Shown here piece after piece: positions 6,062 to 42,741 of a DNA stretch of 64,000 nucleotides. The DNA comes from Actinomycetota bacterium. Its GTDB lineage: Bacteria; Actinomycetota; CADDZG01; WHSQ01. The position numbers were made by a program, and so were the translations under genes. The DNA lies in NCBI GenBank assembly GCA_009379915.1, contig WHSV01000006.1, positions 279 to 64,278 on the forward strand, read 5' to 3'. The notes under the pieces are model-generated. The model did no database searches and was not told the DNA's origin. It saw only the letters and a program-made list of their open reading frames with translations. Position 1 is the stretch's first letter; every line of letters starts with the position of its first letter.

Positions 6062-6083
6062 GTAGATTTGTCGACTTCTCTAC
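6062..6083. repeat. ATTTGTCGAC-family box (GTAGA-N3-GTCGAC-N3-TCTAC)
   Basis: The sequence gtagatttgtcgacttctctac lies in the 61-nt gcvT-gcvPA spacer, 14 nt upstream of the gcvPA start. Confidence 0.6.
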
Positions 6084-6109
6084 CTGTTGATGTGTTGCCT
6101 TGTCGTCGG

Positions 6110-7183
6110 TCAGGCTCTCTTGATGAAAGGCGGCTTAACGATATCGCCCTCGATCCGCCGACCGCGCGCCTCGATGGCGACACTCTGCCCGACCTCCGGG
6201 GTTAGCTCGCGCGGTCCCAGAGCAAGCCCGATGCCCGTGCCCAGCGTCGGCGAGAAGTTTCCGCTGGTGAGCTCGCCGATCCGCTGCTCGCCGGCGAAGA
6301 CCGGGCAGCCCTGGCGCGGCACTCCCCGGCCGGTGCACGCGATGCCGAACAATCTTCTGGCCGGACCGGTCTCTTTCACCGCGCTGAGTGCCTCTTTCCC
6401 GCGAAAGTCGGGATCCCATTTCACCGCCCATCCAAGCGACGCCTCCAGCGGATTGATGTCGCGCGTCAACTCGTGCCCGTAGAGGGCGTAGCCCATCTCG
6501 AGGCGCAAGGTGTCGCGGGCACCAAGCCCGACGGGGGCGGCCCCCGCATCGAGAATCCGCTCGAGGGCCGGCTCGGCCACGGCGGCGGGTGCGTAGAGCT
6601 CGAAGCCCCGTTCGCCGGTGTAGCCGGTGCGAGCGACCATCCCCTCCTCTCCGAGAACATCGAGCGTCGTGAAGCGGTGGAGCTTGAGGTCCGTCGCTCC
6701 GCTCCCGGGGAAGACCTTGTCGAACACCTCGAAGGATCTCGGGCCCTGAATGGCGAGGATGGCCCAGCGATCCCACTCGTCGGCTACCTCGGTGCCCGAT
6801 GCTTCGATCATCTCGGCAACCGCCGTGACGTTCGCAGCGTTCGGCACCACGAGCCACTCGTGTTCCGCCACGCGGTAGATGAAGATGTCGTCGACGGTGC
6901 CGGCGTCGTCCGTCAGCACGAGCGCATAACTCGCCTGCCCCGGCACGAGGCCCTCGATGTCGGCGGTCACGGCATGCTGCAGCGCGGCGCTGCCCTGCGG
7001 GGAGGTAACCCGAAGCTTCCCGAGGTGGCTGACGTCGAATACCCCGGCGTTGTGTCTCACCGCGTTGTGCTCGGCGACGACGCCGGAGTACTGCAGGGGC
7101 ATATCCCAGCCGCCGAACTCTACGATCCGGGCTCCCAAGCGCTTGTGCGCGTCGAGAAGATGCGTCTCACGCGCCCCGGCCAT
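6110..7183 (-). CDS. gcvT: aminomethyltransferase (glycine cleavage T protein)
   Basis: ORF 6110..7534 trimmed to MAGARETHLLDAHKRLGARIVEFGGWDMPLQY (ATG 7183), a canonical GcvT N-terminus. Confidence 0.93.
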   Translation of the reverse strand: MAGARETHLLDAHKRLGARIVEFGGWDMPLQYSGVVAEHNAVRHNAGVFDVSHLGKLRVTSPQGSAALQHAVTADIEGLVPGQASYALVLTDDAGTVDDIFIYRVAEHEWLVVPNAANVTAVAEMIEASGTEVADEWDRWAILAIQGPRSFEVFDKVFPGSGATDLKLHRFTTLDVLGEEGMVARTGYTGERGFELYAPAAVAEPALERILDAGAAPVGLGARDTLRLEMGYALYGHELTRDINPLEASLGWAVKWDPDFRGKEALSAVKETGPARRLFGIACTGRGVPRQGCPVFAGEQRIGELTSGNFSPTLGTGIGLALGPRELTPEVGQSVAIEARGRRIEGDIVKPPFIKRA

Positions 7184-7188
7184 AGGGC

Positions 7189-7656
7189 TCAACCCGCCAA
7201 TGCGGATCCGAACGAGCGGCGCTCGGCCCAGAGATCGAGGTCGAGCTTCCCGTCCAGCTTCTCGAGCGACGACCCCTGGGACGGCTCCTCCAATCCGTAC
7301 TTGATCAGGAGGTTGAGATAGTCGCGCTGGTACAGGATGCGGCAGCGGACATCCGGATACAGCGAGGTCAGTCGCCTCACCTTGCGGTTCTTCTTCGTCA
7401 CGAGCTTCTGGTTGAGGGTCGTGATCTCTATGTAGAGATCGAACTCCGGCAAGTAGAAATCCGGGGAGAAGCGCTGAGCCGGGTTGCCCTGCCGATCCCA
7501 CTCGATGTCGAAGGTCGTCGGTTCGTAACGCCACTCGATCATGTAGAAGTCGAGCAGGGTCGCGAACTGCCGCTCACTGTTGTGAGCAAACCGAGTCTGC
7601 TCATGGGGAAGGAGCGAAGAAGGGTCGGCCTTAACCGGCGCCCGTTCCTCTGAGAT
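7189..7656 (-). CDS. conserved hypothetical protein, start codon unresolved
   Basis: The 3' part of the 7189..8250 frame has coding-like third-position GC (FSPDFYLPEFDLYIEITT). No ATG/GTG/TTG occurs between the MerR stop and ATG 7542. AAGGAGG sits 7 nt before an ATC at 7656. Confidence 0.5.
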   Translation of the reverse strand: MSEERAPVKADPSSLLPHEQTRFAHNSERQFATLLDFYMIEWRYEPTTFDIEWDRQGNPAQRFSPDFYLPEFDLYIEITTLNQKLVTKKNRKVRRLTSLYPDVRCRILYQRDYLNLLIKYGLEEPSQGSSLEKLDGKLDLDLWAERRSFGSALAG

Positions 7657-7658
7657 GT

Positions 7659-8144
7659 CTAGCCCTCCTTGGCTCGCAGCTCTTCCTCGCGCCCAGGAGA
7701 ACCGTACGTCACGTCCTCTGCGGTGGGTCGGAGTTCTGCCAAAGTTCCATCGAGCTGCTCCTTGACCTTCTCGACCGATACGAGTGATCCGAGCACTCCC
7801 TGTCCCGAGCGGAGAAGGTCTAGGACCTCCGCCTCCGACGTGCACGCGTAGACGCGATCCCCGTCGGTGGCGATGGTCACCTTGGACCAGTCCCCCTCTA
7901 TGTTCTCGCGCACGTACTCGATGGATTGACGAACTTTCTGAAGGCTTGCCCCCGCGTCGATCAGCTCCTTGATGACCTTGAGCTGCAGTAGGTCGTTGAA
8001 GCTGTAGACGCGCTGGGTCCCCGATCCCTCGGCCGACTTGATGGAGGGGGCGACGAGACCAGTGCGGGTCCAGTAGTCGAGCTGGCGATAGGTGATGTCG
8101 ACGATCTTGGTTGCCTGTGGGCCCCCGTACCCCATCTTCTCCAT
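7659..8144 (-). CDS. MerR family transcriptional regulator
   Basis: ORF 7659..8144. ITYRQLDYWTRTGLVAPS...RVYSFNDLLQLKVIKEL is a MerR-type HTH. Its position matches the Rv1830-like gene of the conserved block. Confidence 0.85.
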   Translation of the reverse strand: MEKMGYGGPQATKIVDITYRQLDYWTRTGLVAPSIKSAEGSGTQRVYSFNDLLQLKVIKELIDAGASLQKVRQSIEYVRENIEGDWSKVTIATDGDRVYACTSEAEVLDLLRSGQGVLGSLVSVEKVKEQLDGTLAELRPTAEDVTYGSPGREEELRAKEG

Positions 8145-8208
8145 TGCTGCCTCCCCGGACGACCGGTCGCGATCCTATGAAGTACAACTTGGTAGTTACG
8201 TGCCTGGA

Positions 8209-8237
8209 ACCGTACGCTCCCGCGCGCGGCCTGTCAA
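8209..8237 (-). promoter_or_regulatory. candidate promoter TTGACA-17-TACGGT for the MerR/gcvT operon
   Basis: Minus strand: TTGACA (8237-8232), a 17-nt spacer, then TACGGT (8214-8209). This lies about 65 nt upstream of ATG 8144. Confidence 0.4.
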
Positions 8238-8335
8238 CGACAACCTTCATTGTTGACTGAAGAGTTCAGCCAAGTATCAACGTCAGGGCGCGCGTTAGGA
8301 GACCAAATTCACGCGAACGAGCCGGGAGGAGGGGT

Positions 8336-8815
8336 CTAGGTGTCGCTCGCGAAGTCCTCGGGCTGCACCTGGTCGAGGAACTCCCTGAACTTCTCGACCT
8401 CGGTCTCCTCTTCGTCTTTTAGCTCGATGCCCGCCTGTTCCAGGACCTCTTCGGAGGCGAAGATGGGGGCGTTGATCCTCACCGCGAGGGCGATCGCGTC
8501 GCTCGGCCGGGACGACACCTCGGAGTTTCCGCCGTTCGCGGCCATCCTGATCGTGGCGAAGAAGGTCTGCTCCACCAGGTCGTTGATGATGATCCGTTCG
8601 ACCGCCGTGTTGGTGGTGTTGAGGATGTCGCGTAACAGGTCGTGCGTCATGGGCCGGGGAGTCTGAATTCCCTGGAGGGCGAACGCAATTGCCGTCGCCT
8701 CGACCGCACCTATCCAGATGGGTAGGTAGCGTTCTCCGTCGACCTCCTTCAACAGCACGATCGGTTGGTTCGACGGTAGCTCGACTCGCACGCCGACGAG
8801 CGATAGCTCGATCAT
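8336..8815 (-). CDS. bifunctional nuclease (BFN/DUF151) family protein
   Basis: ORF 8336..8815. PIVLLKEVDGERYLPIWIGAVEATAIAFALQG...RPMTHDLL is the DUF151 signature. The position is Rv1829-like. Confidence 0.85.
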   Translation of the reverse strand: MIELSLVGVRVELPSNQPIVLLKEVDGERYLPIWIGAVEATAIAFALQGIQTPRPMTHDLLRDILNTTNTAVERIIINDLVEQTFFATIRMAANGGNSEVSSRPSDAIALAVRINAPIFASEEVLEQAGIELKDEEETEVEKFREFLDQVQPEDFASDT

Positions 8816-8834
8816 GCGTCCGAAACTAACACCG

Positions 8835-9431
8835 TCACCCGCTTTTCAAACCGAAGAGTTGAGCCACCATCAGACGCGGATCGTTGGCAAGCCGAGCAAG
8901 ATCTCTAACCGCCAGGATGTCCGCCACGTTGCGGTAGAGCCCCTGAAAGTCGAGCCCATAGCCCACGACGAAGACATCGGGAATCTCGAACGCGCTGAAC
9001 TCGAGTGGGACGGGGATGATCCTTCGAGCGGTCTTGTCCAAGAGGGTCACGGCTCGTAGCGAATCGGGCTCGCGCTGCGACAAGGTCTTGCGCAGGTAGT
9101 TGAGGGTTAGTCCTGTGTCCACGATGTCTTCCACGACCACGACATCGCGACCCCGAACGTCCTCATCGAGATCCTTGACGATGCGTACCACTCCGGACTG
9201 CGAGTACGAGGAGATGGACATGAAGTCGACGGCGACGTCGATATCCATGGCTCTGATGAGATCGGCTAGAAACATGGCCGAACCTTTTAGGACCCCCACC
9301 AGCACGGGAGGTTCCTCGTCGGCGAAGAGCCCTGCGAGTTCGGCCCCCAGTTCGTCGATGCGCCGAGCGATCGAGGCGCGATCGATCAACAGCTCGGCTG
9401 GGAGATTCGAGGCGAAGCGGCCGTCGATCAC
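8835..9431 (-). CDS. hpt: hypoxanthine phosphoribosyltransferase
   Basis: ORF 8835..9431. It carries the PRPP-binding loop VVVVEDIVDTGLTL and VLKGSAMFLADL. Confidence 0.9.
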   Translation of the reverse strand: MIDGRFASNLPAELLIDRASIARRIDELGAELAGLFADEEPPVLVGVLKGSAMFLADLIRAMDIDVAVDFMSISSYSQSGVVRIVKDLDEDVRGRDVVVVEDIVDTGLTLNYLRKTLSQREPDSLRAVTLLDKTARRIIPVPLEFSAFEIPDVFVVGYGLDFQGLYRNVADILAVRDLARLANDPRLMVAQLFGLKSG

Positions 9432-9435
9432 CCCG

Positions 9436-10614
9436 TCAGTTGCCTATCCACTGTCCCCATGAAAGGACGGTAGCAAGCCCCTCGACCGCCCAGGAGGGCT
9501 GCGGTTCCTCGATGCGCGAGCGCGTCATCGCGGGCACCCGATCGATGACGCGCTCGCCCGAGGTCACGATGACCGATCCAACGACATCGCGGGGCGCCAA
9601 CGGAAGGTCGTAGGAGCGCGCCGGTTCGAAAGACACTTCGATGGTGTCGGGCAGGGCCAGACCTCGCACGGTCCGAGTTGCGTGGGCCCGGACCGAGCCT
9701 GCGGGATCGAGAACAACCGTGCCCACCTCGGCTCCGCGCTCCAGCAGCACGGAGCGCCGGAGCTTGGCGAAACCGTAGTCGAGGAGGGCGCGGGAATCGG
9801 CGAAGGAGTCGGCCGAGCGGAGGACGACTCCGATGAGCCGGCGCTTGCGACGTACGGCCGCCGACACGAGAGCGTTGCCCGCTCCGAGAGTGTAGCCCGT
9901 CTTGATGCCGACGGCGCCCCTATAACTCTCGAGTAGAAGATTACGGTTCTGGATGGTGACCGTTCCCTCCGGCCCCTCGACGGCCGCCTTCCGCAGGCCC
10001 ACGATCTCCCGCAGGACGGGCTCTTCGAGCAGCTCGCCCGCGATGATCGCCAGGTCGGCAGCCGAGGAGTAGTGACCCGCGGTGTCGAGCCCATGCGGTG
10101 TCACGAAGGCTGTGTGGTCGAGCTCGAGGCGGCGCGCCTGGGCATTCATGCTTGCGACGAAGGCCTCCTGGGAACCCGACACGTGCTCGGCCAGGGCGAT
10201 GGCGGCGTCGTTGGAGGACGACAGGAGCAGCGCCGCCAGAAGGGCTTCGACCGACCAGACCTGGCCGGCCTTCAGATCGAGCCCTCCCCCGCCGGCGATC
10301 GCCGCGGTGTCCGATACCCGGACCTCGTCGCCCAGCACCCCCGCCCGAACCGTCAGCACGGCGGTCATCATCTTGGTGGTGCTGGCGTTGGGCAGCTCGG
10401 CTGCGGCGTTGCGCTGGAACAGGGTGTCGCCGGTATCCGAGATCACGAGACAAGCCTCGCAGCCGACCGTGGGTGGCCGTAGCGTTGGCCGCTTGTCTGC
10501 CTCCCGCGCCTGCGCGACCACCAGGGCCGAGGTGGTGGCGCTCGAAGGTCCCGCCGCCGTCTCGAGGGCAAGCGCCAGGACCAGGATTGCAATGGGTAAG
10601 CGACTTATCGACAA
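9436..10614 (-). CDS. D-alanyl-D-alanine carboxypeptidase (S11 penicillin-binding protein)
   Basis: ORF 9436..10614 with a signal peptide and the motifs SxxK (ASTTKMM), SxN (SSNDAA) and KTG (IKTGYT). Confidence 0.88.
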   Translation of the reverse strand: MSISRLPIAILVLALALETAAGPSSATTSALVVAQAREADKRPTLRPPTVGCEACLVISDTGDTLFQRNAAAELPNASTTKMMTAVLTVRAGVLGDEVRVSDTAAIAGGGGLDLKAGQVWSVEALLAALLLSSSNDAAIALAEHVSGSQEAFVASMNAQARRLELDHTAFVTPHGLDTAGHYSSAADLAIIAGELLEEPVLREIVGLRKAAVEGPEGTVTIQNRNLLLESYRGAVGIKTGYTLGAGNALVSAAVRRKRRLIGVVLRSADSFADSRALLDYGFAKLRRSVLLERGAEVGTVVLDPAGSVRAHATRTVRGLALPDTIEVSFEPARSYDLPLAPRDVVGSVIVTSGERVIDRVPAMTRSRIEEPQPSWAVEGLATVLSWGQWIGN

Positions 10615-10645
10615 ATAGATATACCTACTTGGACAGAAGTTGATC
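10603..10645. repeat. two adjacent ATTTGTCGAC-family boxes
   Basis: The sequence acttatcgacaaatagatatacctacttggacagaagttgatc fills the MerR-stop to dac-start spacer and overlaps the dac TTG start. Confidence 0.55.
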
Positions 10646-11829: not shown

Positions 11830-11838
11830 GGGCGTGAA

Positions 11839-11866
11839 GCTATACCGCTACTTTAGGGTTAGTCAA
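11839..11866 (-). promoter_or_regulatory. candidate promoter TTGACT-16-TATAGC (near-leaderless FHA gene)
   Basis: Minus strand: TTGACT (11866-11861), 16 nt, then TATAGC (11844-11839). The ATG at 11829 lies 9 nt downstream. Confidence 0.35.
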
Positions 11867-11873
11867 GCGTGAG

Positions 11874-11890
11874 CCCCCGCCCGGCGGGGG
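11874..11890 (-). terminator. hairpin after gcvH
   Basis: CCCCCGC-ccg-GCGGGGG lies 7 nt after the gcvH stop. There is no U-tract. Confidence 0.3.
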
Positions 11891-11896
11891 TGGGCG

Positions 11897-12274: not shown

Positions 12275-12325
12275 CCGGCTCTCCTTTCGCCTCGCTCAAC
12301 GATCTCCTTCGAACCCTCTCCATCA

Positions 12326-12343
12326 ACATGTCGACAAATCGTC
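12326..12343. repeat. ATTTGTCGAC-family box
   Basis: The sequence acatgtcgacaaatcgtc lies about 55 nt upstream of the gcvH start and overlaps the stop of the upstream gene. Confidence 0.6.
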
Positions 12344-14861
12344 AAGCCGACTCGTCGACAGCATTCGCCACGACTCGATCGACGAGGTCAGCGTAGTCCT
12401 CGGCGAGCGCCGCTGCCTCGTGCTGTGACGATGCCTCGGCCCAGATCGTGCACCGGGGCTCGTCCGGGGATGGAATTACGAGGACCCAGCGATCATCCTC
12501 GACGATCTTGACGCCGTCGAGCAGCACCTGCCGGCCGTGCTTGGCCCGCATTGCGACCTCGCGCATGACCGTTCCCTTTTGTTGCCAGGGTGTTCTCACC
12601 GTGCGCCTGACCAGATGGCTGTCGGGCAGGGCCCCGAGCAGGTCGGACAGCGGTTTGCCCGCGGTGACCCTCAGCTCGAGGGCCTTGCAGAAGGTCATCA
12701 TCGCATCGGAGGCCGGCATGAAATGAGGCCAAATCAGCGTCCCCTCGGTGTCCCCCGCGAAATCGACCTCCACGCGCTGCGCCTGAGCCATGAGAGCGGG
12801 GAGACCGGTGGGCGTCCACTGCAGGGGCACGCCGGCGTCTGCGGCCAGCCGCTCCGCCAGAAAAGGCGCCGACACCGGAACTGCGACCGTGCGCGCCCCT
12901 CTCTGCACCTCGTGCTGGAGAAAGGCCAGGAGGGCTTGCCCCTGCGTCACGGGGTTGCCCCGGTCGTCGATGAGGTGCGCTATCTCCCCTCCCGGCTCGA
13001 GGACCACGCCGAGGTCCGAGCCGGACTTTTTCACGTGCTCGCTGACGGTCTCGATCAACCGGTCGATCTCGGCGCTGCCGAGCACCGGCCTGTGCTCGTC
13101 GGTGAACGCGTTGACCGACAGGGCCTGGACCCCCAGACGCCCCAGGACCGATGTCCCCACCCGGGACGCCGCCCCGTAGGCGTAGTCGATCACGACCTTC
13201 AGGTGTGCAGACCTGATGACGTCGAGTTCGACCGACCTGAGGAGCCCCGTCGAGTAACCACCTAGGGCGTGGGCGGGAAACTCCAGCTCTCCGAGCCGCT
13301 GGGCGCCGGGCCTCCGAAAGTCCTCTCGGAAGAAGAGCCTGTCGATCTTTCGCTGTGTGCTCTCGTCGATATCGGCGCCCTCGGAGTCGAACAGCCGTAT
13401 CTGAACGACCTCGGAATCCTCGTTGGATGTTCTGACGCTGATGCCCCCGGCGGCCTGCTCGGTGCCCACGGTGAAGCGGGTGACCGGCAACGCCATCAAC
13501 TCGAGGTCGTGACAGGTGACCCCCGTCGAGGTCAGCCCCGCGATGAGGGCGCGCTTTATCGTGCGCGCGGCCCGGCTGGCGTCCCGGCCCAGCACCACGG
13601 TGCTGTTGCGCGGGAGCATCGTTCCGTAGGCCATGCCAAGGCGCACCGCGACCTGCGGCGTCATCCCGATGTTGACCAGGCCCGATACGCCTCTGGCCCC
13701 GAAGAGGCTGCGACTCGCCCTTCGCTCGCGCACGATGCTCTCGGTAACGATCGCCCCGGCCTCGACCGTGCGCAAAGGGTAAACCTTCACTCCAGGCTTG
13801 ATCAGCGCGCCCGAGCCCACCACGACCTCGTCGCCGAGGACCGCCCCTTCCTCGACCGTCGATCCCCGCCCGAGCGATGAGCCCCGGCCCAAAACGGACC
13901 CGCGCACCTGCGATCCCGGGCCCACGTGCCCCGCTTCCATCACGACTCCGCCCACGACCGACGCCTCGGCCCCCACGATCGCGTGATCGCCGATGACCGC
14001 TCCGCCCTCGATGCGCGCGTTCGGACCCACGCGGCAGTTGTCGCCTATCACCGCAGGTCCGGTGATGACGGCCGAGTCATCGATGTCGACGTCCTCGCCG
14101 ACCCAGACGCCCGGCTCCAGCTCGAACCCCGGCATGTCGACCTCGACCCTGCCCTCGACCGCGTCGAGCTGCGCCTGCAGGTAGGCCTCCGCGTTTCCGA
14201 CGTCGGTCCAGTAGTCGTCGGTGATGAACCCGAATATGGGAAGGCCGTCCGCGAGCATCCGGGGAAAGAGCTCGGAGGAGAAGTCATAGGGGCGGTCGTC
14301 CGGGATGAGGTCGAGCACTTCGGGCTCGAGGACGTAGATGCCGGTGTTGACGGCATCCGAGAAGACCTGTCCCCACGACGGTTTCTCGAGGAAGCGCTCG
14401 ATCCTGCCGTCGGGTGCGGTCATGACGATGCCGAACTCCAGTGGGTCCGGCATCCGCTTCAAGACCAGAGTGGCCGCCGCCTCGCGCTCTTGATGCCACG
14501 CGAGAGCACGACCGAGGTCCAGATCGGTCAACGCGTCCCCGGAGATGACGAGGAAGCGTCCCGTGAGTAGGTCCCGCGCCCCCAGAACCGAACCGGCGGT
14601 TCCAAGTGGCACGTCTTCCGTGGCATAGGCCAGGGAGACGCCCATGTCGGAGCCGTCGTCGAAATAGTTGCGAATTACCGAGGAGAGGAACTGAACCGTG
14701 GCGACGACGTCGGTGATTCCGTTGCGTCGCAGGAGATCCACGATGTGCTCCATCAAGGGCCGGTTCGCCACGGGGAGCATCGGCTTCGGCAGGTTGCTCG
14801 TCAGCGGTCGAAGCCGCGTGCCCTCGCCCCCCGCCATTACCACCGCCTGGAGGTCGCTCAC
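12342..14861 (-). CDS. bifunctional sugar-1-phosphate nucleotidyltransferase / phosphomannomutase
   Basis: ORF 12342..15182 trimmed to the GTG at 14861 (GTGA overlap with the upstream stop). It has an N-terminal MAGGEGTRLRPLT, a left-handed beta-helix repeat region, and a C-terminal phosphohexomutase-like part. Confidence 0.85.
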   Translation of the reverse strand: MSDLQAVVMAGGEGTRLRPLTSNLPKPMLPVANRPLMEHIVDLLRRNGITDVVATVQFLSSVIRNYFDDGSDMGVSLAYATEDVPLGTAGSVLGARDLLTGRFLVISGDALTDLDLGRALAWHQEREAAATLVLKRMPDPLEFGIVMTAPDGRIERFLEKPSWGQVFSDAVNTGIYVLEPEVLDLIPDDRPYDFSSELFPRMLADGLPIFGFITDDYWTDVGNAEAYLQAQLDAVEGRVEVDMPGFELEPGVWVGEDVDIDDSAVITGPAVIGDNCRVGPNARIEGGAVIGDHAIVGAEASVVGGVVMEAGHVGPGSQVRGSVLGRGSSLGRGSTVEEGAVLGDEVVVGSGALIKPGVKVYPLRTVEAGAIVTESIVRERRASRSLFGARGVSGLVNIGMTPQVAVRLGMAYGTMLPRNSTVVLGRDASRAARTIKRALIAGLTSTGVTCHDLELMALPVTRFTVGTEQAAGGISVRTSNEDSEVVQIRLFDSEGADIDESTQRKIDRLFFREDFRRPGAQRLGELEFPAHALGGYSTGLLRSVELDVIRSAHLKVVIDYAYGAASRVGTSVLGRLGVQALSVNAFTDEHRPVLGSAEIDRLIETVSEHVKKSGSDLGVVLEPGGEIAHLIDDRGNPVTQGQALLAFLQHEVQRGARTVAVPVSAPFLAERLAADAGVPLQWTPTGLPALMAQAQRVEVDFAGDTEGTLIWPHFMPASDAMMTFCKALELRVTAGKPLSDLLGALPDSHLVRRTVRTPWQQKGTVMREVAMRAKHGRQVLLDGVKIVEDDRWVLVIPSPDEPRCTIWAEASSQHEAAALAEDYADLVDRVVANAVDESA

Positions 14862-15451: not shown

Positions 15452-15521
15452 GGCTCCCTCCGTAAAGCTCGTCTATCGATGTCCACGCCCTTGGTGCTGG
15501 GATGGCGCCCGTCGTTCGGAG

Positions 15522-15596: not shown

Positions 15597-15604
15597 AAGC
15601 GGCC

Positions 15605-15634
15605 ATCATAACCGGGGCCTTTCGGCGGGCCCAA
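15605..15634 (-). promoter_or_regulatory. candidate tRNA-Pro promoter TTGGGC-18-TATGAT
   Basis: Minus strand: TTGGGC (15634-15629), 18 nt, then TATGAT (15610-15605). The -10 ends 8 nt before the mature tRNA 5' end. Confidence 0.4.
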
Positions 15635-15640
15635 TCCGAC

Positions 15641-15662
15641 TACTTATCTACAAATCGATAAG
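15641..15662. repeat. ATTTGTCGAC-family box variant (CTTATC-N8-GATAAG)
   Basis: The sequence tacttatctacaaatcgataag lies immediately upstream of the predicted -35 of the tRNA-Pro promoter. Confidence 0.55.
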
Positions 15663-15808
15663 ACTCTTCATTGCCAAGTGGATAAGGGGATGTGTGACCA
15701 AGTGGACGACCGAACCGAGCCGACGAGCGCCGCCATCCTGCAGGACCCGTCCGCAGCCCGCGGAGCGGACCTCCGCCGCCCGCCGGAGAAGACTTGCCTC
15801 AGCTTGAT

Positions 15809-17798: not shown

Positions 17799-19111
17799 CC
17801 GTATCTTCCCTGTGCGCGCCCAAGCAGATCGAGAAACTCGGGGAACGAGGTGCTCACGCTGCTCCACCCCTTCACCACGACGGGCTCCTCGGAGCGCAAC
17901 CCCGCCACCGCGAACGACATCGCGGCGCGATGGTCGCCGCGCGCGTCCACCTCGGCACCCTTGAACACCGAGGGCCCCCGAATCCGCATCCCATCCGGCT
18001 CTGGACTGCAGTCAACCCCGAGCTCCCGAAGTCCTGTACACATGACATCGATTCGATCCGACTCCTTCACGCGCAACTCCTGGGCGTTCCGGATGAGCGT
18101 CTCTCCCTCGGCACAGGAGGCCAGCACGGCAACCACCGGAAGTTCGTCGATCAGAGTGGGTATCTCCTCGGCGCCTTCGATGGTCGTTCCGGTGAGCTCC
18201 GAGCCGCGCACGCTCACGTCCCCGAACGGCTCATCGAATCGTTTTCCGGCGACCCGAACGTCGATCTCGGCCCCCATCCTGGACATCACGTCGAGGAGTC
18301 CCGTCCGGCTCGGATTCAGTCCCAGGTTGGTGATCGTGAGATCCGAACCGTCGACGATCGCCGCGGCCACGAGAAGGAACGCGGCCGACGAGATGTCCCC
18401 GGGGACGTCCCAGGTCATCGCCGACAGGGCAGGGGTGGGTTCGAGGCGGATCCGGTTGCTCTCAACGCGAAGCCTCGCTCCCGCGGCGGCGAGCATCCGC
18501 TCGGTGTGGTCCCGGCTCGCGCCCGGCTCGATGAGCGTCGTGGGCCCGGTGGCGTGGAGGCCGGCGAGCAGAACGGCCGTCTTGACCTGCGCGCTCGCAA
18601 TCGGTAGCCGCAGATCGACGCCCGATAGGTCGCCGCCTCGGATGGCGAGCGGAGCCCGGTCGCCGAAAGCACGGCCCTCGATCCGCGCCCCCATCTGCCG
18701 GAGCGGAGCGACCACTCGCAGCATGGGCCGCCGGAGGAGGGTGGCGTCCCCCGTCACCACGGACAGACCCTCGACTCCCGCGCAGAGCCCGAGAATCGTG
18801 CGCATCGTGGTTCCGGAATTGCCCGCATCGAGAACGTGCTCGGGCTCTCTCAAGCCGCCCACTCCCCTACCCTCAACCTCAACCTGATAGTTTGCCTCGT
18901 CGGAGGTGATGGCCGCTCCGAGCAACTCCAGAAGGGATGCGGTCGCGCGGCAGTCCTCACCGAGGTTCGCGTTGGCCACGAGCGACCGTCCGCTCGCGAG
19001 GCTCGAGATCATGAGCGCCCTATGCGTGATGGACTTGTCGCCCGGAACCTCGAGAGTTCCCCGCAGGGGTGACGGGGCGGGCGAGGAACGCCACAGTCGT
19101 CTTATCGACAT
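17795..19111 (-). CDS. aroA: 3-phosphoshikimate 1-carboxyvinyltransferase (EPSP synthase)
   Basis: ORF 17795..19111. It contains LEVPGDKSITHRALM and LGNSGTTMR-type motifs and is 438 aa. Confidence 0.93.
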   Translation of the reverse strand: MSIRRLWRSSPAPSPLRGTLEVPGDKSITHRALMISSLASGRSLVANANLGEDCRATASLLELLGAAITSDEANYQVEVEGRGVGGLREPEHVLDAGNSGTTMRTILGLCAGVEGLSVVTGDATLLRRPMLRVVAPLRQMGARIEGRAFGDRAPLAIRGGDLSGVDLRLPIASAQVKTAVLLAGLHATGPTTLIEPGASRDHTERMLAAAGARLRVESNRIRLEPTPALSAMTWDVPGDISSAAFLLVAAAIVDGSDLTITNLGLNPSRTGLLDVMSRMGAEIDVRVAGKRFDEPFGDVSVRGSELTGTTIEGAEEIPTLIDELPVVAVLASCAEGETLIRNAQELRVKESDRIDVMCTGLRELGVDCSPEPDGMRIRGPSVFKGAEVDARGDHRAAMSFAVAGLRSEEPVVVKGWSSVSTSFPEFLDLLGRAQGRYG

Positions 19112-19133
19112 GGCTCGTTGTCTACTTGTCTAC
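19101..19133. repeat. box variants including the tandem octamer TTGTCTAC x2
   Basis: The sequence is cttatcgacatggctcgttgtctacttgtctac. The TTGTCTAC copies lie at 19118-19125 and 19126-19133, directly upstream of the aroA ATG (19111). Confidence 0.5.
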
Positions 19134-20280: not shown

Positions 20281-20670
20281 TCATTCGCGAAGATCCGTCC
20301 TGAGTTGCTCGGCACCCTCGAGATAGACGTGGCGCAGGGTCTCGGCCGGTCTTGTCGTGTAGAGATGCATGAGGACCCGGATGCACCGCGGCACCGATCC
20401 CGGCACGTCGATCTCGCGAGCACAGAGGAGGGGTACCGATGACAGCCCGAGCGCCCGGGCGGCGGCGGCCGGAAACTCGGCCGAGAGGTCCGCTGTGGTC
20501 GTGAAGATCATGCTGACGAGATCCTCGGTCGCGATCCCGTTGCGGCCGATCATCTCGGCGAGAAGGCGCTCGGTCGCATCGACGATCGCCCGGCCTTCAT
20601 CGGCCGCTGCCGTGGTCGCCCCCCTCAGGGCCCGTAATCTTTGGTCGGCCACTTGTCTCCTCGTGCTCAA
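20281..20670 (-). CDS. aroH: chorismate mutase (AroH type)
   Basis: ORF 20281..20670. LRALRGATT...MIFTTTADL...VPLLCAREIDVPG is an AroH-class signature. The start may instead be the GTG at 20652. Confidence 0.85.
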   Translation of the reverse strand: MSTRRQVADQRLRALRGATTAAADEGRAIVDATERLLAEMIGRNGIATEDLVSMIFTTTADLSAEFPAAAARALGLSSVPLLCAREIDVPGSVPRCIRVLMHLYTTRPAETLRHVYLEGAEQLRTDLRE

Positions 20671-20674
20671 GTCG

Positions 20675-20694
20675 GCTTGTCGACAAATCTACCT
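20675..20694. repeat. ATTTGTCGAC-family box
   Basis: The sequence gcttgtcgacaaatctacct ends 4 nt upstream of the aroH TTG start. Confidence 0.6.
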
Positions 20695-20720
20695 ATCGAC
20701 CCCTCGTAGTAACGCTAACG

Positions 20721-20768: not shown

Positions 20769-20784
20769 GTCTTGTCGACAAGTA
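20769..20784. repeat. box with the perfect 12-bp palindrome CTTGTCGACAAG
   Basis: The sequence is gtcttgtcgacaagta, with the palindrome at 20771-20782, about 10 nt after the rluB stop. Confidence 0.6.
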
Positions 20785-20791
20785 CACTCGT

Positions 20792-21535
20792 CTACAACCC
20801 GGCGGCCCGGTAAAGCGCCCGCACCTCGTCCGGCTTCAGCCGGCGATAGGTCGCGGGCTTCAGCCGGCCAAGCATAAGCGGGCCTATGGCGGTTCGGACG
20901 AGGTGCCTGACGGGGTGACCCACCGCCTCCAGCATGCGCCTGAGCTGGCGATTGCGGCCCTCGGCCAAGGAGATCTCGATCAGGGTCCCCCCGGGAGTAC
21001 GCTCCACGAGGCGAGCCCGCGCCGGGGCCGTCATGCCGCCGTCGAGCTCCACGCCTCGGGCGATCTGGCGCACGGTCTTGTCCTTCACGCTTCCCTCGAC
21101 CTCCGCGAGGTAGGTCTTGTGCACGCCGAAGCGGGGATGGGTCAGCCTCAGCGCCAGGTCTCCGTCGTTGGTCAGGAGAAGAGCCCCCCCGCTGTCCAGG
21201 TCGAGCCGGCCGACGGGATAGACGCGGGTATCCACGTCGTCGAGCAGGTCGATCACCGTTTCCCTGCCGGCCTCGTCGCTCGCTGTGGTTACCACCCCGA
21301 CCGGCTTGTTCATCAGGTAGTAGACGAGATCGGTGGACAGAGGCACACGCGAACCATCAACCTCTACTAGATCCTTTGACGGATCGATCCGCCGGCCCAG
21401 CTCGACCCGCTTGCCGTTCACCCGGATCCGTCCCCTGACGATCATCTCCTCGATCGTTCTGCGGGAGGCAACGCCGGCTCTGGCCAGCACCTTTTGGATC
21501 CGCTCCCCCTCGGGGGCGGACTCCTTGCGGTTCAT
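20792..21535 (-). CDS. rluB: 23S rRNA pseudouridine synthase (RluB/RsuA family)
   Basis: ORF 20792..22357 trimmed to MNRKESAPEGERIQKVLARAGVASRR (S4 domain) with the catalytic GRLDLDSGGALLLTNDG. The start forms an ATGA overlap with the scpB stop. Confidence 0.9.
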   Translation of the reverse strand: MNRKESAPEGERIQKVLARAGVASRRTIEEMIVRGRIRVNGKRVELGRRIDPSKDLVEVDGSRVPLSTDLVYYLMNKPVGVVTTASDEAGRETVIDLLDDVDTRVYPVGRLDLDSGGALLLTNDGDLALRLTHPRFGVHKTYLAEVEGSVKDKTVRQIARGVELDGGMTAPARARLVERTPGGTLIEISLAEGRNRQLRRMLEAVGHPVRHLVRTAIGPLMLGRLKPATYRRLKPDEVRALYRAAGL

Positions 21536-22886: not shown

Positions 22887-22922
22887 TCAGCTTTCGGTCC
22901 TCTCGCCGTCTCTTCCGTAGAG

Positions 22923-22955
22923 ACATGTCGACAAATGTACTTGTAGACAAATCTG
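22923..22955. repeat. two tandem ATTTGTCGAC-family boxes
   Basis: The sequence is acatgtcgacaaatgtacttgtagacaaatctg. GTCGACAAAT lies at 22927-22936 and GTAGACAAAT at 22943-22952 (16-nt phase), about 40 nt upstream of the scpA ATG. Confidence 0.6.
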
Positions 22956-24799: not shown

Positions 24800-25087
24800 G
24801 GCTCCACTAGAGTGTTAGGGTTGTCGGCATGGAGCTTCCCTCGGCCGGGCTGCATGCGAGAAGGTGGGGTCCCCTAGTTGGCGGCTGCGCCGCGAGATGC
24901 CGTCCCCGACTCCACCCGCACGCTCCAGAGGCGACCCCGGCCGCACCCCGCGGCCGTCCCCGGCAGGCGCGCGCCGTCCACCCGGTTCCGCCGCTCTTCG
25001 GTTTGCTCCTCCCGACCGGCGCCGGGGCAGCAGAGGGCCCTGCTTCCCGGGGTCGATCCGCGGAAGATCGACTAGGTGTGGACCATT

Positions 25088-25116
25088 CATCGACTTGTCC
25101 ATATGGCTACAAATGG
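25088..25116. repeat. box-like cluster around the palindrome CCATATGG
   Basis: The sequence catcgacttgtccatatggctacaaatgg contains TTGTCCATA and, on the other strand, ATTTGTAGCC. Confidence 0.45.
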
Positions 25117-25190
25117 CTTTGTGCCTCCCGTTTGCGGTTGGTTCTCCCTGCTCACAGGGCGAGTCCACTAGTCGCTTCGACCACATGGCG

Positions 25191-25238
25191 TCTTGTCGCC
25201 AAGTAGATATCTCGCCTAATCCAACTGTAGACATGTCG
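25191..25238. repeat. box-like cluster
   Basis: The sequence tcttgtcgccaagtagatatctcgcctaatccaactgtagacatgtcg contains TCTTGTCGCCAAGTAGA and TGTAGACATGTCG. Confidence 0.45.
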
Positions 25239-25566
25239 TTACCGCTCCAGACCTCATGCCCGCCTCGGCCTCGGCGCCGCCCCTCGAATGAGCTCGGGAC
25301 CCCGGGGGGCCATTGCCGGACCGGCGCGGCATGACGGCCCCAGCGGCGACGCCGACCCACGTCCCCGCGCTGCGGTTCTCGGCGCCCGCCGTCGCCGGGG
25401 TGACCCGGGCTCGCCAGTCGAGGTTCCCGGTGCTCGGGCGCACGTCCCCCGGCGGGAGCCAGAGGAACCACCATAAGTCTCGACTTTAGCCTTATACTTC
25501 ACTCCACGCTCGGTCCGCCCTTTGCGCGGGTCGCTCAGGAGCGACGGGCCTCGCGATCCCGGGAAC

Positions 25567-25600
25567 CAAAAGGGGGCCGACCACCACGCCGGCCCCCTTT
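25567..25600 (-). terminator. intrinsic terminator of the parA-like/RHH operon
   Basis: On the minus strand, GGGGGCCGG-cgtggtg-GTCGGCCCCC is followed by TTTTGG, 14 nt after the stop at 25614. Confidence 0.6.
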
Positions 25601-25613
25601 CGATCGAGGTCGT

Positions 25614-25991
25614 TCAGTCGTTCAACTTCCGAAGCAGGACCGAGTCCTCCCCGCGCGCGCCGAAGTCCTCGAGGACATATGCCACGGCCGCCCTCACGAT
25701 CCGGCCGCGGTCCGCGGAGAGGCCGTAGGCGGCCCTCAGCTCGAGCCTGGTCCGCTCTATCGCCATGAGATCGTCGGGCGTGCAATAGAACGTGATCTTC
25801 TCCTCGTGCTTGGGCGCCTTGGGCTTGGGAGCCGTCTCCGGCGCCGCTTCGGACACCGGCGTGGCGACTTGTAGCTTTGTCGACTTGGCGTCTTGCATAC
25901 TTGTCTCTGAACTGGGACGTGTTTCTCTGGGTCGGTCCGAGGTCTTTCGGAAGAGCTCCTCAGCTCCGGGCAAACTGGCTCGACGAGACAC
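25614..25991 (-). CDS. small protein with a disordered N-terminus and putative ribbon-helix-helix C-terminal domain
   Basis: ORF 25614..25991. The GTG start is preceded by AAGGAGG at 9 nt, inside the parA 3' end. KITFYCTPDDLMAIERTRLELRAAYG..RGRIVRAAVAYVLED reads as strand-helix-helix. Confidence 0.6.
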   Translation of the reverse strand: MSRRASLPGAEELFRKTSDRPRETRPSSETSMQDAKSTKLQVATPVSEAAPETAPKPKAPKHEEKITFYCTPDDLMAIERTRLELRAAYGLSADRGRIVRAAVAYVLEDFGARGEDSVLLRKLND

Positions 25992-26880: not shown

Positions 26881-26904
26881 CCAGCCTCCCTGGGGTCGTC
26901 ATAG

Positions 26905-26922
26905 ATACTTGTCGACAAATCA
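26905..26922. repeat. ATTTGTCGAC-family box
   Basis: The sequence atacttgtcgacaaatca lies 25 nt upstream of the parA-like ATG and downstream of the candidate promoter. Confidence 0.6.
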
Positions 26923-26938
26923 CCTTGTGGGCCGCCGG

Positions 26939-31115: not shown

Positions 31116-32864
<1,749 letters not shown>

Positions 32865-32973
32865 TCATACCTGGTGACGACCCCCGACCCTCCAAAGGGC
32901 GACATCGCTTTCGATGCGGCCTCGGTGTGGGGGAAGTCAGCCCAAAGTAGCACGCGCGCGCCTTGGGGCGCGT

Positions 32974-38751: not shown

Positions 38752-38794
38752 GGCGCTTCCGTCGGTGACCGGTTATTCAATGAGTCACCGCCAA

Positions 38795-39748: not shown

Positions 39749-40944
39749 CCGAAGATCGCCGTTCGGATCGAGTCCCAGGTCAGCGAAAGCTGTGTCCACA
39801 ACAAAGACAGCTGTCCTCGGAAGACGTCGGAGAACACGATGACCATGCTGATAGCGAGCAGAGCCGAGAACACGAGAAGTCCGAGGTCTCGCCCGCGCAC
39901 GCGCCCGTGATAGAGCCGGCTGAGGCCCTTGGCGTCGACCAGAATCGGTCCGACTCTGAGACGAGTCAGAAAGGTCGAGGCCATCCCCTTGCGACCTTTG
40001 TCTCGAAACTCGATCAGGTTGGCGTGGGTACCCACGGCGACGATCAGCTCGGCCCCCCTTTCGTAGGCAAGCAACATTCCGATGTCCTCCGACGTCCCGG
40101 TCGCCTCGAACACCACGCAGGACAGCCCCAACGCATCGAGTCGCTCGGATCCCGGAGCGTAACCATCCGCGTATGCGTGCACCACCAGCTCGGCGCCGCA
40201 CGTGAGGGCCTCGGTCGTCACCGAGTCCATGTCGCCGATGATCATGTCGGGTTTCAGTCCGACATCGATCAGCGCATCCGCTCCTCCGTCGACTCCAATA
40301 AGCAACGGCTTGACCTCACGAATGTAGGAGCGCAACGCATGGAGGTCGTCCTTATAGTCGTAACCGCGCACGACCACCAGGACATGACGCCCGTGAAAGT
40401 CGGTGCGGACCTCGGGCAATCGCGCTGCCTCGAGCAGCACGTCGCGCTCGTCCTCGATGTATTCGATCGTGTTCTGTGCGAAGCGCTCGAGCTCTACCGC
40501 GATCCCCTGCTTGGCCTCATCGAGCGACTCCTCGACGCTCTCCAGCTCGAGCCGGGTTCCACGCGTTATCTCGACGTGTTCATTGCCTTCTCTGCGGAAC
40601 ACCCGATCGCCGTCTACGGCTATCTCGGTGCCGTCGATGAGGAGCATGATCTCCTTGCCCACGTCGTCGATCACGGGAATCCCTGCCGAGCACAGAAGAA
40701 GGGGGCCCAGGTTCGGGTAGCGCCCCGTTGTCGACTTCGAAGCGTTGATCACCGCGGTTGCGCGCCGCTCTATCAGCCCCTCGGCCGAAATGCGGTCCAT
40801 GTCCTCGTGGTCGACGACCGCTATCTCACCGGGATTCAAGCGGGTGGTGAGATCCTTGGTTCGATGATCGACCCGCGCGACGCCCAGCAGCGCACCCGGC
40901 ACGTCGGGGAGGTGCTGACGCCTCCTCTTTCCGAGGATATTCAT
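39745..40944 (-). CDS. steA: putative cytokinetic ring protein SteA
   Basis: ORF 39745..40944. The position is Rv1697-like, with a thiamine-pyrophosphokinase-like core and a C-terminal TM segment. The start forms an ATGA overlap with the recN stop. Confidence 0.8.
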   Translation of the reverse strand: MNILGKRRRQHLPDVPGALLGVARVDHRTKDLTTRLNPGEIAVVDHEDMDRISAEGLIERRATAVINASKSTTGRYPNLGPLLLCSAGIPVIDDVGKEIMLLIDGTEIAVDGDRVFRREGNEHVEITRGTRLELESVEESLDEAKQGIAVELERFAQNTIEYIEDERDVLLEAARLPEVRTDFHGRHVLVVVRGYDYKDDLHALRSYIREVKPLLIGVDGGADALIDVGLKPDMIIGDMDSVTTEALTCGAELVVHAYADGYAPGSERLDALGLSCVVFEATGTSEDIGMLLAYERGAELIVAVGTHANLIEFRDKGRKGMASTFLTRLRVGPILVDAKGLSRLYHGRVRGRDLGLLVFSALLAISMVIVFSDVFRGQLSLLWTQLSLTWDSIRTAIFG

Positions 40945-42668
40945 CGAGCGCTCGCGGTCTCGAGCAGCTCCTTGGCGTGCTCCCGCGCCCTCTGACTCTC
41001 CGGCATTCCGGCGAGCATGCGCGACAACTCGTCGACCCTCTCGGCTCCCTCGACGCGCGCGACCAGGGCGATGGAACGCGCATCGGCAGACTCCTTCAGG
41101 ACGCGGTAGTGGTAATCGGCAAAGGCGGCGACCTGAGGGAGGTGCGTGACGAGCAGCACCTGGGCCCCCGTGGCGCGCGCCAGATCCGCCAGCGCCCGTC
41201 CCACGGACTGAGCCGCCAGCCCGGCAACACCGGCATCGACCTCGTCGAAGATCATCGTGCGCGCAGAGCCCTCGGTCTCTCCCTCTCGCGACGTCAACAG
41301 GTGCAGCGCCAGCGCGATCCGCGACAGCTCCCCTCCCGACGCCACCTTCGCAACCGGACGGGCCATCTCGCCGGGGTTGGCCGCGACCCGAAACTCGACG
41401 GACTCCATACCGCCCTCGAACAACTCTCGCTGAGTCAGTGCCACCTCGAACCGAGCTCCCGAGAGCGCGAGTTCGCCCAGAGTCTCCTCCATGGCTTTCT
41501 CGAGACGAGGGGCCGCCACCTTCCGCAGGGTTCCGAGCTCCCGCGCGAGATGCCCGGCCCGCGCCATCAGGCTCTCGTGTTCGGCGCGCAGTGCTCCGAG
41601 CGATGACTCCGCGTTCTCCAGCTCGTCGATCCGGGCCCTCGCGCGCTCCAGATATCCCAGAACCCCGGCCTCCGGTCCCCTCGGTTCGGAATCCTGCGGC
41701 ACCCGGTCCTCGCCGTACTTTCGCGTCATCCGTGCGATGACATCGAGGCGAGCCCTCGTCTCCTCGAGCGTCTGAGGATCCGGTGCCACCATGCTGCGGG
41801 TCAGATCGCTCGCGATGTCCGCTATCTCGAGCGAGGCCGCCTCGAGCCGCCGGGTCACTTCCTCGAGGGCCGGGTCCCTCTGGGACGCCGCCGAGACATC
41901 CCGGTGCGCCGAGTCGATCGTCTCGGCAGCACCGCGCTCCCCATTCAGCGCATCGATCGCTCGCCCCAGCGCCAGGGCGATCGACTCTGCGTGTTCGAGG
42001 CGGTCCGCGTCCTTCGTCAGCCGGTCGAACTCCCCCTCCTGTAGCTCGGACTTCTCGATCTCGGAGATCTCGTAGCGCAGAAGATCGAGCTCGCGCTCCC
42101 GCTGTCGCTCGTTCGACAGCAGTGTGTCCATTTCACCGTGGACCCGGCTTGCCGCTCGAACCGTCCCGGTGAGCTCGGCTGCGAGAGCAGTGGATCCGGC
42201 AAAGGCGTCGAGCAAAGCCCGCTGCCGGGAGGGGGCGGCGACGCCCTGTGCTTCGTTCTGGCCCGCTATCTCGACGAGCTGTTCGCCGACCGCTCCGAGC
42301 GCTGCGACGGTGACCAGACGGCCGTTGATGCGCGCCCGGCCCCCTTTCCCGTCGGCTGTGATGCTGCGGGTCAGGACGACCTCGGCCTCCGACTCGGCCA
42401 TCCCGGCCTCGATGATTCCGTGGGCGCTGAGCACCTCGAGGGCTGCGTGACCCGGGGGCACGACGAAGCGCCCCTCGACGAGCGCTTCGGCCGCTCCCTC
42501 CCGGACCAGGGCGCGATCGGACCGGCCGCCCACCAACAGCCCGAGGGCGGCCACGATCAGGGTCTTTCCGGCCCCGGTTTCTCCCGTGAGGGCGCTACAG
42601 CCGCCACGCAGCTCCAGCTCGGCGCGCTCAATCACGCCGAGGCCCTCGACAACAAGCTCTCTCAGCAT
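40941..42668 (-). CDS. recN: DNA repair protein RecN
   Basis: ORF 40941..42668. It has Walker A LTGETGAGKT, long coiled coils, and a C-terminal FDEVDAGV. Confidence 0.93.
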   Translation of the reverse strand: MLRELVVEGLGVIERAELELRGGCSALTGETGAGKTLIVAALGLLVGGRSDRALVREGAAEALVEGRFVVPPGHAALEVLSAHGIIEAGMAESEAEVVLTRSITADGKGGRARINGRLVTVAALGAVGEQLVEIAGQNEAQGVAAPSRQRALLDAFAGSTALAAELTGTVRAASRVHGEMDTLLSNERQRERELDLLRYEISEIEKSELQEGEFDRLTKDADRLEHAESIALALGRAIDALNGERGAAETIDSAHRDVSAASQRDPALEEVTRRLEAASLEIADIASDLTRSMVAPDPQTLEETRARLDVIARMTRKYGEDRVPQDSEPRGPEAGVLGYLERARARIDELENAESSLGALRAEHESLMARAGHLARELGTLRKVAAPRLEKAMEETLGELALSGARFEVALTQRELFEGGMESVEFRVAANPGEMARPVAKVASGGELSRIALALHLLTSREGETEGSARTMIFDEVDAGVAGLAAQSVGRALADLARATGAQVLLVTHLPQVAAFADYHYRVLKESADARSIALVARVEGAERVDELSRMLAGMPESQRAREHAKELLETASAR

Positions 42669-42727
42669 CCGTGAGGAATCCTAAGGGTGAGCGGGGGCGA
42701 AAGGCGGTGTCTCGTGACCATCACGGA

Positions 42728-42741
42728 ATCTCGACAAATTC
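42728..42741. repeat. ATTTGTCGAC-family box variant
   Basis: The sequence atctcgacaaattc lies about 60 nt upstream of the recN ATG. Confidence 0.45.

Follow-up and report, generated by a model that had tools for sequence, protein, structure and literature searches.

Arrays of an 8-bp unit around a parA2-like gene pair in an Actinomycetota chromosome, with a candidate binding protein

What is the short A/T-rich element that keeps recurring in the spacers of a high-GC actinobacterial chromosome, and which protein might read it? The question is raised by a 64-kb stretch of contig WHSV01000006.1 from an Actinomycetota bacterium (assembly GCA_009379915.1), the whole of which is called the window here and in which an earlier note, made from the letters alone, had described a recurrent palindromic box. 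The element is real, a non-random, spacer-restricted, dyad-containing motif of protein-binding type, and its basic repeat is an 8-bp unit, KAYTTGTC, set in arrays. The largest arrays occur at a gene pair, both within it and on its upstream and immediate downstream sides; the pair consists of the gene for a ParA2-like Walker ATPase (parA2) and a small gene whose 125-aa product is the most likely candidate binder of the units. On balance, we lean towards reading the arrays as cis-acting 8-bp iterons for this small ParA2-linked protein, a plasmid type Ib logic fixed in a chromosome.

The 8-bp unit and its register

Motif analysis covered the window and its syntenic relatives, with boxes scored by a position weight matrix (PWM; threshold, 9 bits) and genes called by a self-trained codon model and then checked against Pfam. 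The earlier suspicion that the box recurs beyond chance was borne out. Seven copies of CGACAAAT were found against 0.95 expected, a number reached by none of 100 shuffles, and excesses were also obtained for TTGTCGACA with at most one mismatch (30 matches, 12.2 expected) and for KAYTTGTCGACAAR with at most two (19 matches, 1.08 expected). The 10-mer with the greatest over-representation in the window is TTGTCGACAA, whose eight sites at up to one mismatch (10605, 12328, 20677, 20772, 22925, 22941, 25193 and 26909) are all intergenic, the one at 10605 coinciding with the doubtful start of dac. Spacers total only 6.0 kb of the window, and the strong sites are all non-coding, with the single exception of one conserved intragenic array. 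A literature search for TTGTCGACAA returned cloning primers only.

The description of the element as a 10–14-bp palindrome had to be revised. Scoring the half-sites separately resolved the repeat into the 8-bp unit, which combines a conserved TTGTC core with a 3-nt A/T-rich spacer; the former box is an inverted pair (><) of such units. Once the sites were aligned in gene orientation, two details of the earlier description were seen to hold, namely the tendency of the ATTT side to point away from the gene and a 16-nt phase; many boxes are preceded at 16 bp by a second, weaker copy, and others show direct repeats. Across the window and five relatives, unit spacings are almost only 8, 16, 24, 32 and 40 bp, and this is true of all four orientation classes. 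Pairs at 8 bp comprise 24 inverted (+-), 7 everted (-+), 5 direct (++) and 13 direct (--), against only 5.6 unit pairs expected over all spacings combined. The arrays take the forms ><, <><, >>>, <<< and >.<, the last with one unit skipped.

Within the window, 26 units have an in-register partner, compared with 0.36 in shuffled sequence (shuffle maximum, 4). These 26 units are confined to the interval from 10.6 to 26.9 kb, the five large spacers of 43–64 kb being free of them; the boxes are clustered and not spread evenly across the window. The coordinates given earlier were all correct, as were the gene names (gcvPA, dac, gcvH, aroA, chorismate mutase, scpA, the ParA-like gene, recN and tRNA-Pro), and the cluster at 25864-25907 does occupy a coding position inside the small gene. 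However, the sites at 6062-6083 and 19101-19133 are weaker (PWM 10–14 bits), and that at 42728-42741 amounts to one weak unit whose membership is unconfirmed. The features are collected in Table 1.

The register also bears on another reading, in which the boxes are variant DnaA boxes controlling cell-cycle genes. This had been a lead of the earlier note, given that TTGTCGACA is one mismatch from TTGTCCACA, and the neighbouring genes do include the cell-cycle genes scpAB, parA2 and recN. However, the mismatch falls on one of the positions that DnaA boxes conserve, and both halves of the element are equally conserved as a dyad and repeat every 8 bp, whereas 9-mer DnaA boxes are arranged otherwise. 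The window contains no canonical TTGTCCACA, no origin genes and no GC-skew switch, and hence nothing with the make-up of a DnaA cluster, that is, non-dyadic 9-mers (TTGTCCACA/TTATNCACA) near origin genes or a skew switch. Control by DnaA can hardly be credited.

Table 1. Genes of the parA2 pair and unit arrays in the window, with their occurrence in related loci (L numbers)
Feature	Coordinates	Strand	Composition and position	Occurrence in relatives
parA2/pldP-like gene, Walker ATPase of 306 aa	25960..26880	-	Deviant Walker A KGGVGKT	
Small gene, 125-aa product	25614..25991	-	GTG start at 25991; 32-nt overlap with the end of parA2	
Three-unit array	26906..26929	-	TACTTGTC GACAAATC ACCTTGTG (+ strand); 26 nt upstream of the parA2-like start codon; strongest box of the window, PWM 28.5 bits	Conserved in L002, L003, L006, L131, L132; box at the same place in distant L137
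Intragenic array, four to five units	25866..25905	-	GACTTGTA GCTTTGTC GACTTGGC gtcttgca TACTTGTC (+ strand)	
Array of ~10 units, 8-bp register	25158..25237	.	Non-coding gap where the small gene and an M50 peptidase gene converge (3' ends)	
Second gap array	25092..25123	.	GACTTGTC catatggc TACAAATG GCTTTGTG; inverted pair split by one unit length	Split arrangement also in L003, L002, L006
Four-unit array, two boxes 16 bp apart	22922..22953	-	36-67 nt upstream of scpA; PWM 22.7 and 24.4 bits	Found in all relatives
Box with weak third unit	20769..20792	-	rluB/chorismate mutase spacer	Orthologous box in L002-L006, L132, L136
Array at chorismate mutase start	20650..20697	-	CACTTGTC .. .. GGCTTGTC GACAAATC TACCTATC	
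Four in-register units	19099..19130	-	GTCTTATC GACATGGC TCGTTGTC TACTTGTC; overlaps/abuts the aroA start (ATG 19111)	Direct-repeat version GACAAGTA GACAAGTG in L004, L005
Three-unit array	15641..15664	-	Centre ~50 nt upstream of the inferred tRNA-Pro transcription start	
Box with weak unit at 12349-12356	12325..12340	-	51 nt upstream of gcvH (gcvH-garA-ftsR operon)	
Four-unit array	10602..10633	-	ftsR/dac spacer; overlaps the sole available dac start codon	Orthologous arrays in L004, L005, L006, including a GATTTGTC x3 direct repeat
Weak two-unit site	6065..6080	+	GATTTGTC GACTTCTC; gcvT/gcvPA spacer; PWM 12.9 bits; orientation opposite to the rest	
Single weak unit, membership unconfirmed	42728..42741	-	Upstream of recN; below the 9-bit threshold, no in-register partner	

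Conservation of the arrays in related loci

Conservation in orthologous spacers had been proposed as a check on the element, and it is observed. Seven related loci from uncultured Actinomycetota have the arrays in the same spacers, between flanks that diverge; five of these are closer relatives (L002-L006, ScpA 79–94% identical) and two are more distant (L131 and L132, small protein ~67% identical). In all five array-bearing upstream regions, the columns occupied by units are more conserved than the flanks, with identities of 0.94 versus 0.75 upstream of parA2, 0.64 versus 0.34 upstream of scpA, 0.60 versus 0.43 at the chorismate mutase start, 0.82 versus 0.68 at aroA and 0.79 versus 0.46 at the gcvH box. 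Isolated chance units show no raised conservation in the same column comparison, and the arrays are thus conserved under selection. At tRNA-Pro, an alignment of six relatives retains the box and, without variation, a TATGAT, but not the 33 nt that separate the two.

These alignments also speak to the proposal that the units are core promoter parts read by RNA polymerase, either -10-like hexamers (TAGATT/TAGACA) at the unit junctions or A/T-rich UP-like elements. The junctions do yield TAnnnT-like hexamers such as TAGATT, the sites are A/T-rich, stand 0–60 nt upstream of start codons and keep a consistent orientation to the gene, and a TAGACA 7 nt from the aroA ATG fits a leaderless geometry. 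However, A occupies the second hexamer position in only 10 of 30 sites, the invariant -10 of tRNA-Pro (TATGAT) lies 33 nt downstream of the box, and the distance to the start codon varies among orthologues (24–39 nt at scpA). Moreover, most spacers of the window have no array, and arrays are found in non-promoter DNA, as is the case for the intragenic and downstream ones. A scan of 10–27 kb for sigma-70-type promoters gave no match. A role as promoter parts is therefore quite improbable. As a separate observation, the 5' end of the mature tRNA-Pro is preceded at 8 nt by the invariant TATGAT in six relatives (15597-15640 and the L002-L006 equivalents); the -35 region is unconserved, which suggests a -10-only promoter.

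The intragenic array encodes an island, ...KSTKLQVA, within the otherwise variable linker of the small protein. Seven loci share its codons AAG TCG ACA AAG CTA CAA exactly, even where protein identity falls to 67%, and three of these codons are rare, ACA (4.8%), CTA (2.5%) and CAA (17%); for the given peptide, this choice of codons has a probability of 6e-5. The KSTKLQVA island is absent from members of the small-protein family in other clades. At this place the DNA, rather than the peptide, appears to be under conservation, as if a binding array had been written by means of rare codons into the coding sequence of its likely binder.

The gap downstream of the small gene (24800-25613) comprises ~800 bp of 69% GC between convergent genes, in which no open reading frame (ORF) is conserved even in the closest relative and no Rfam match was found. 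The sole conserved block in its alignment is a ~150-bp unit-rich stretch holding the two gap arrays (25092-25123 and 25158-25237). A terminator-like hairpin is also present 3' of the small gene, at about 25560-25590, the gap being otherwise poorly conserved outside the unit arrays.

Further away, TGTCGACA-type boxes recur at the corresponding places in relatives whose small proteins are only ~50–68% identical. They are numerous in L131 and L132, where the register signal is strong. The signal is weak but positive in L137, with a single box 44 nt upstream of parA2, in L136, with a single box in the rluB/chorismate mutase spacer, and in L134, which has ATATCGATAT variants, three of them in the orthologous rluB/chorismate mutase spacer; in L135 it is marginal with the same unit model. 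A metagenome-wide scan with GATTTGTCGACAARTA gave at least 120 matches, nearly all of them chance single matches in unrelated genomes. Only L035, L077, L083 and L094 among the matches listed belong to the same lineage, and all four are the orthologue of the site upstream of parA2. Two unrelated high-GC metagenome contigs carry three similar boxes each (L081 2982-3035 and L012 1690-1773), adjoining small winged-helix or phage-like genes, which indicates that similar palindromes serve other regulators elsewhere.

The gene pair and a candidate binder

The ATPase matches the Pfam domains AAA_31, CbiA and ParA, only P-loop domains of ParA/MinD type, and has no helix-turn-helix domain. It is 57% identical to a Streptomyces ParA2-like protein encoded in the same syntenic slot, between ald/xerD and scpA, and the identity together with the shared slot establishes it as a ParA2/PldP orthologue. 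The order xerD-...-parA2-small gene-...-scpAB is kept in L131-L137, and the small gene directly follows parA2 in all further loci examined that span the region (L002, L003, L006 and L131-L137), among them Streptomyces, the low-GC lineage L134 (47% GC) and Frankiales-like metagenome-assembled genomes (MAGs). The two genes overlap by 4–32 nt in L131, L132, L133, L134, L136 and L137. The Streptomyces neighbour gene is presumably SCO1771, to judge from gene order, and a literature search for SCO1771, under this presumed name, gave no match. Between the parA2 box and the start codon, the leader at 26881-26905 (ATGACGACCCCAGGGAGGCTGG) is near-identical in L002, L003 and L006; a 46-codon out-of-frame ORF starts in this region from an ATG at 26902.

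Three parts make up the small protein: a basic N-terminal peptide that hardly varies (MSRRASLPGAEELFR), a linker that is variable and modelled with low confidence, and a C-terminal strand-helix-helix domain with the pattern HDEKITFYCT..DL..LE..RL.LR...G..ADRGRIVRAALAYVLEDF. The strand has alternating, invariant K, T and Y, and DRGRxxR at helix 2 is invariant among 72 diverse members. In the AlphaFold2 model, residues 58–125 form an extended strand followed by helices (predicted local distance difference test score, 95.8), the N-terminal half being of low confidence. The best neighbour by template-modelling score (0.51–0.56) is the ribbon-helix-helix (RHH) domain of ParB, the centromere binder of the actinobacterial plasmid pCXC100, with a Foldseek E value above 1 that is not significant, and Pfam gives sub-threshold matches to RHH_3 and RHH_1, the former being the most recurrent. 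The fold of the C-terminal domain is thus probably RHH; it is graded as probable because no Foldseek match is significant, the Pfam matches are sub-threshold and no PDB sequence matches. An hhalign comparison with CopG, ParG and omega sequences yielded nothing usable.

Homologues of the small protein number 1379 in one search and at least 7817 from a second seed, with 409 clusters at 50% identity. The family is widespread in Actinomycetota, and its members are annotated as hypothetical or mis-named after ParA. Two of them have an unusual architecture. In P0122 (1514 aa) the C-terminal domain is duplicated at the end of a multidomain protein, and in P0261 (303 aa) it is fused behind a ParA fragment, which may be a gene-call read-through.

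The 125-aa protein had already been listed among possible binders, and it is now the best candidate, by its architecture, proximity and co-occurrence with the arrays. That its own gene pair is flanked and invaded by the largest arrays favours it further. Its RHH-like domain would dimerise, with one dimer per unit and cooperation between neighbours, giving coated stretches of 2 to ~10 units; such cooperative binding would tolerate either orientation and require the 8-bp register. With most arrays located 0–60 nt before a start codon, their coating would be expected to repress or tune the operons that follow, namely parA2 with the small gene, scpAB, chorismate mutase-tyrA, aroA, gcvH-garA-ftsR, dac and tRNA-Pro. 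The first of these would be a case of autoregulation, with the array at 26906..26929 as the putative operator. The dense cluster around the gene pair could form a partition-complex-like nucleoprotein landmark, and the conserved, basic, disordered N-terminal peptide may contact ParA2 and stimulate its ATPase. The unit, its register, the clustering, the conservation under selection, the gene pairing and the domain layout are observed; the identity of the binder, repression and ParA2 contact are what we infer, by analogy with plasmid systems.

Several points weigh against reading the arrays as iterons of the small protein. The case for this binder rests on architecture, proximity and co-occurrence; the small protein has no significant match among Pfam, NCBIfam or PDB sequences, and its RHH fold is no more than probable. 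A tblastn search of 72,556 plasmids with the small protein gave no match. The family is also far wider than the arrays: the Streptomyces locus L133 has the gene pair and no detectable unit array, and a Mycobacteriales MAG gives only a marginal register signal. Since the residues that putatively contact DNA do not vary, these loci ought to carry the same sites, and the absence from Streptomyces needs explaining. Repression is a guess, as the distance to the start codon varies (0–60 nt) and no promoter could be placed. Finally, should the units occur at hundreds of promoters genome-wide, a global regulator encoded elsewhere would become as likely.

The main rival proposal is of that kind: a different global transcription factor, specific to the lineage and encoded beyond the window, for example of GntR/FadR type with ATACTTGTnnACAAGTAT-like operators, would use the arrays as its operators, and the proximity to parA2 and the small gene would be coincidental. 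Only the two central bases separate the B. subtilis gnt operator, ATACTTGTATACAAGTAT, from ATACTTGTCGACAAGTAT. This near match, the form of the strongest sites (14–18-bp dyads just upstream of genes) and the small protein without arrays in the Streptomyces locus, which loosens the link between protein and sites, all agree with the proposal. However, direct and everted arrays, split pairs and a strict 8-bp register in all orientations do not fit a fixed helix-turn-helix dimer site. Some arrays also occupy places that are unlikely for a promoter, namely the interior of a gene and the gap in which two convergent genes end, and the sites are clustered in 17 kb instead of being present at all spacers. 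The GntR-type operator suggested in the earlier note, a single fixed inverted repeat usually adjacent to its regulator gene, fails on the same variable orientation and direct repeats, and no GntR gene was found among the Pfam-scanned ORFs of the window (seven ORFs at 56.2–64 kb and a few short ones at 0.9–1.9 and 44.4 kb fall outside that scan). Control by such an outside factor seems unlikely to us.

Other binders suggested at the outset did not withstand comparison. The 238-aa MerR protein is FtsR (NCBIfam equivalog), whose published site is a 25-bp inverted repeat, AACCCTAAAGTAAAGGTTGAGGGTA (PMC6683498); this motif is unrelated to KAYTTGTC, and FtsR and the second MerR protein were therefore rejected. 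The parS-like nature ascribed to the dyads was close in spirit, but the canonical parS of ParB is absent: no TGTTTCACGTGAAACA (a 16-bp palindrome) was found in the window at up to 3 mismatches, nor any ParB-type gene among its annotated ORFs, and a ParABS (type Ia) system was rejected on these grounds. Independently of the arrays, AGGGTTAG/CTAACCCT is over-represented in the window, with 5 copies (11855, 9103, 15809, 38384 and 53657), one of them in the spacer upstream of garA-ftsR, and resembles the published FtsR half-site AACCCTAA.

The iteron reading can be taken a step further, to a proposal that is tentative and, in our judgement, rather doubtful. The small protein would be the long-missing partner of ParA2/PldP, which is the second ParA-like ATPase of nearly all Actinomycetota, and the arrays the chromosomal 'centromere' of a second, type Ib-like positioning system beside scpAB/xerD that co-regulates neighbouring operons and whose site set expanded to a dispersed 17–36 kb cluster in a deep-branching lineage. 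If so, the system would single out one region of the chromosome as a mark for positioning by ParA2 or for choosing the division site, and neighbouring cell-cycle and housekeeping operons would be co-regulated by it.

Elsewhere in the window, other repeats were noted. Perfect 9-bp tandem repeats of CGGTCGGTG (x8.1 at 62206-62278 and x5.0 at 62366-62410, copies 100% identical) sit in a 338-bp spacer before the gene at 62535, and a 12-bp tandem repeat, CGTCTTCTTGGG (x5.9, 76% matches), occupies 44608-44678 in the 462-bp spacer 44572-45033. A DUF559/REase-like gene at 52620-53243 stands alone on the minus strand in a stretch of lower GC (0.616) and may be an inserted element.

Comparison with known systems

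RHH partition iterons are already well known on plasmids, and the locus shares several traits of a type Ib partition cassette. The ATPase is a small Walker ParA without an N-terminal helix-turn-helix domain, the candidate centromere binder is encoded directly downstream and overlaps the ATPase gene, and short-repeat arrays adjoin the operon, one of them over its putative promoter region. The context is not that of a plasmid, consisting of housekeeping chromosomal genes conserved across orders. In the literature searched, no description was found of a chromosomal, order-spanning iteron system partnered with ParA2/PldP.

The ParF-ParG-parH/OF system of TP228 provides a first comparison. RHH centromere and operator sites are made of short units of mixed orientation in a strict short register, and the TP228 array doubles as parFG operator and centromere (PMC3130281). 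Both loci encode a Walker ParA without helix-turn-helix, followed by a small protein with a flexible N-tail that is of RHH type in TP228 and probably so here. Both also have sites of a short core and an A/T-rich spacer in an 8-bp register, with direct and inverted units mixed, and an array immediately before the ATPase gene, an operator in TP228 and a putative one here, besides larger arrays close by (PMC3130281). Unlike TP228, the present system is chromosomal, without a plasmid homologue, and its core is TTGTC rather than ACTC. Its arrays span at least 17 kb before about ten unrelated housekeeping operons, with one array inside the gene of the presumed binder. The small protein differs from ParG in having no detectable sequence similarity, a longer linker (~45 aa) and an extra C-terminal helix.

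A flexible N-tail by which the partner ATPase is activated is common to type Ib binders (PMC3074162), and the ParB of pCXC100 binds nine unspaced 9-bp repeats. As in delta/omega of pSM19035 and KorB/IncC of RK2, a ParA partner would here have many sites and combine centromere function with transcriptional control, and, as with omega, unspaced short repeats would be bound in either orientation (PMC3074162, together with general knowledge). However, omega units are of 7 bp, KorB belongs to the helix-turn-helix ParB family and recognizes 13-bp palindromes, and both are plasmid-borne, whereas the targets here are chromosomal housekeeping genes.

The met boxes of MetJ offer a further parallel, with tandem boxes in an 8-bp register for RHH dimers (RHH being probable for the protein studied here). 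The dyad cores are GACGTC for MetJ and GTCGAC for the present arrays, and the MetJ strand motif K-I-T-V resembles the K-I-T-F/V of the small protein. MetJ differs as a co-repressor-dependent metabolic regulator that has neither a ParA partner nor an N-terminal tail, and no homology between the two proteins was detected.

The closest counterpart of the ATPase itself is PldP/ParA2 of Corynebacterium and Streptomyces, the Streptomyces protein being syntenic and 57% identical. ParA2 has been reported in all actinobacteria (PMC4255298). PldP is conserved across Actinomycetota, including Streptomyces, Corynebacterium and Mycobacterium, and affects the placement of the division site. It continues to be described as an orphan ATPase with neither a known partner nor a known cargo, the partner being one that 'has yet to be identified' (bioRxiv 10.1101/2025.07.02.662783). 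Unlike PldP as an orphan, the ATPase described here comes with a conserved downstream gene and candidate cis sites. The locus supplies a conserved unnamed gene that overlaps the parA2 stop at every locus examined, from a family of at least 7800 members, a defined 8-bp DNA unit with clear array rules and a set of target spacers. Were binding confirmed, the plasmid type Ib partition/regulator design would have a housekeeping use on a chromosome and the PldP field would have a starting point, and the main interest is that the question of the PldP partner is made directly testable.

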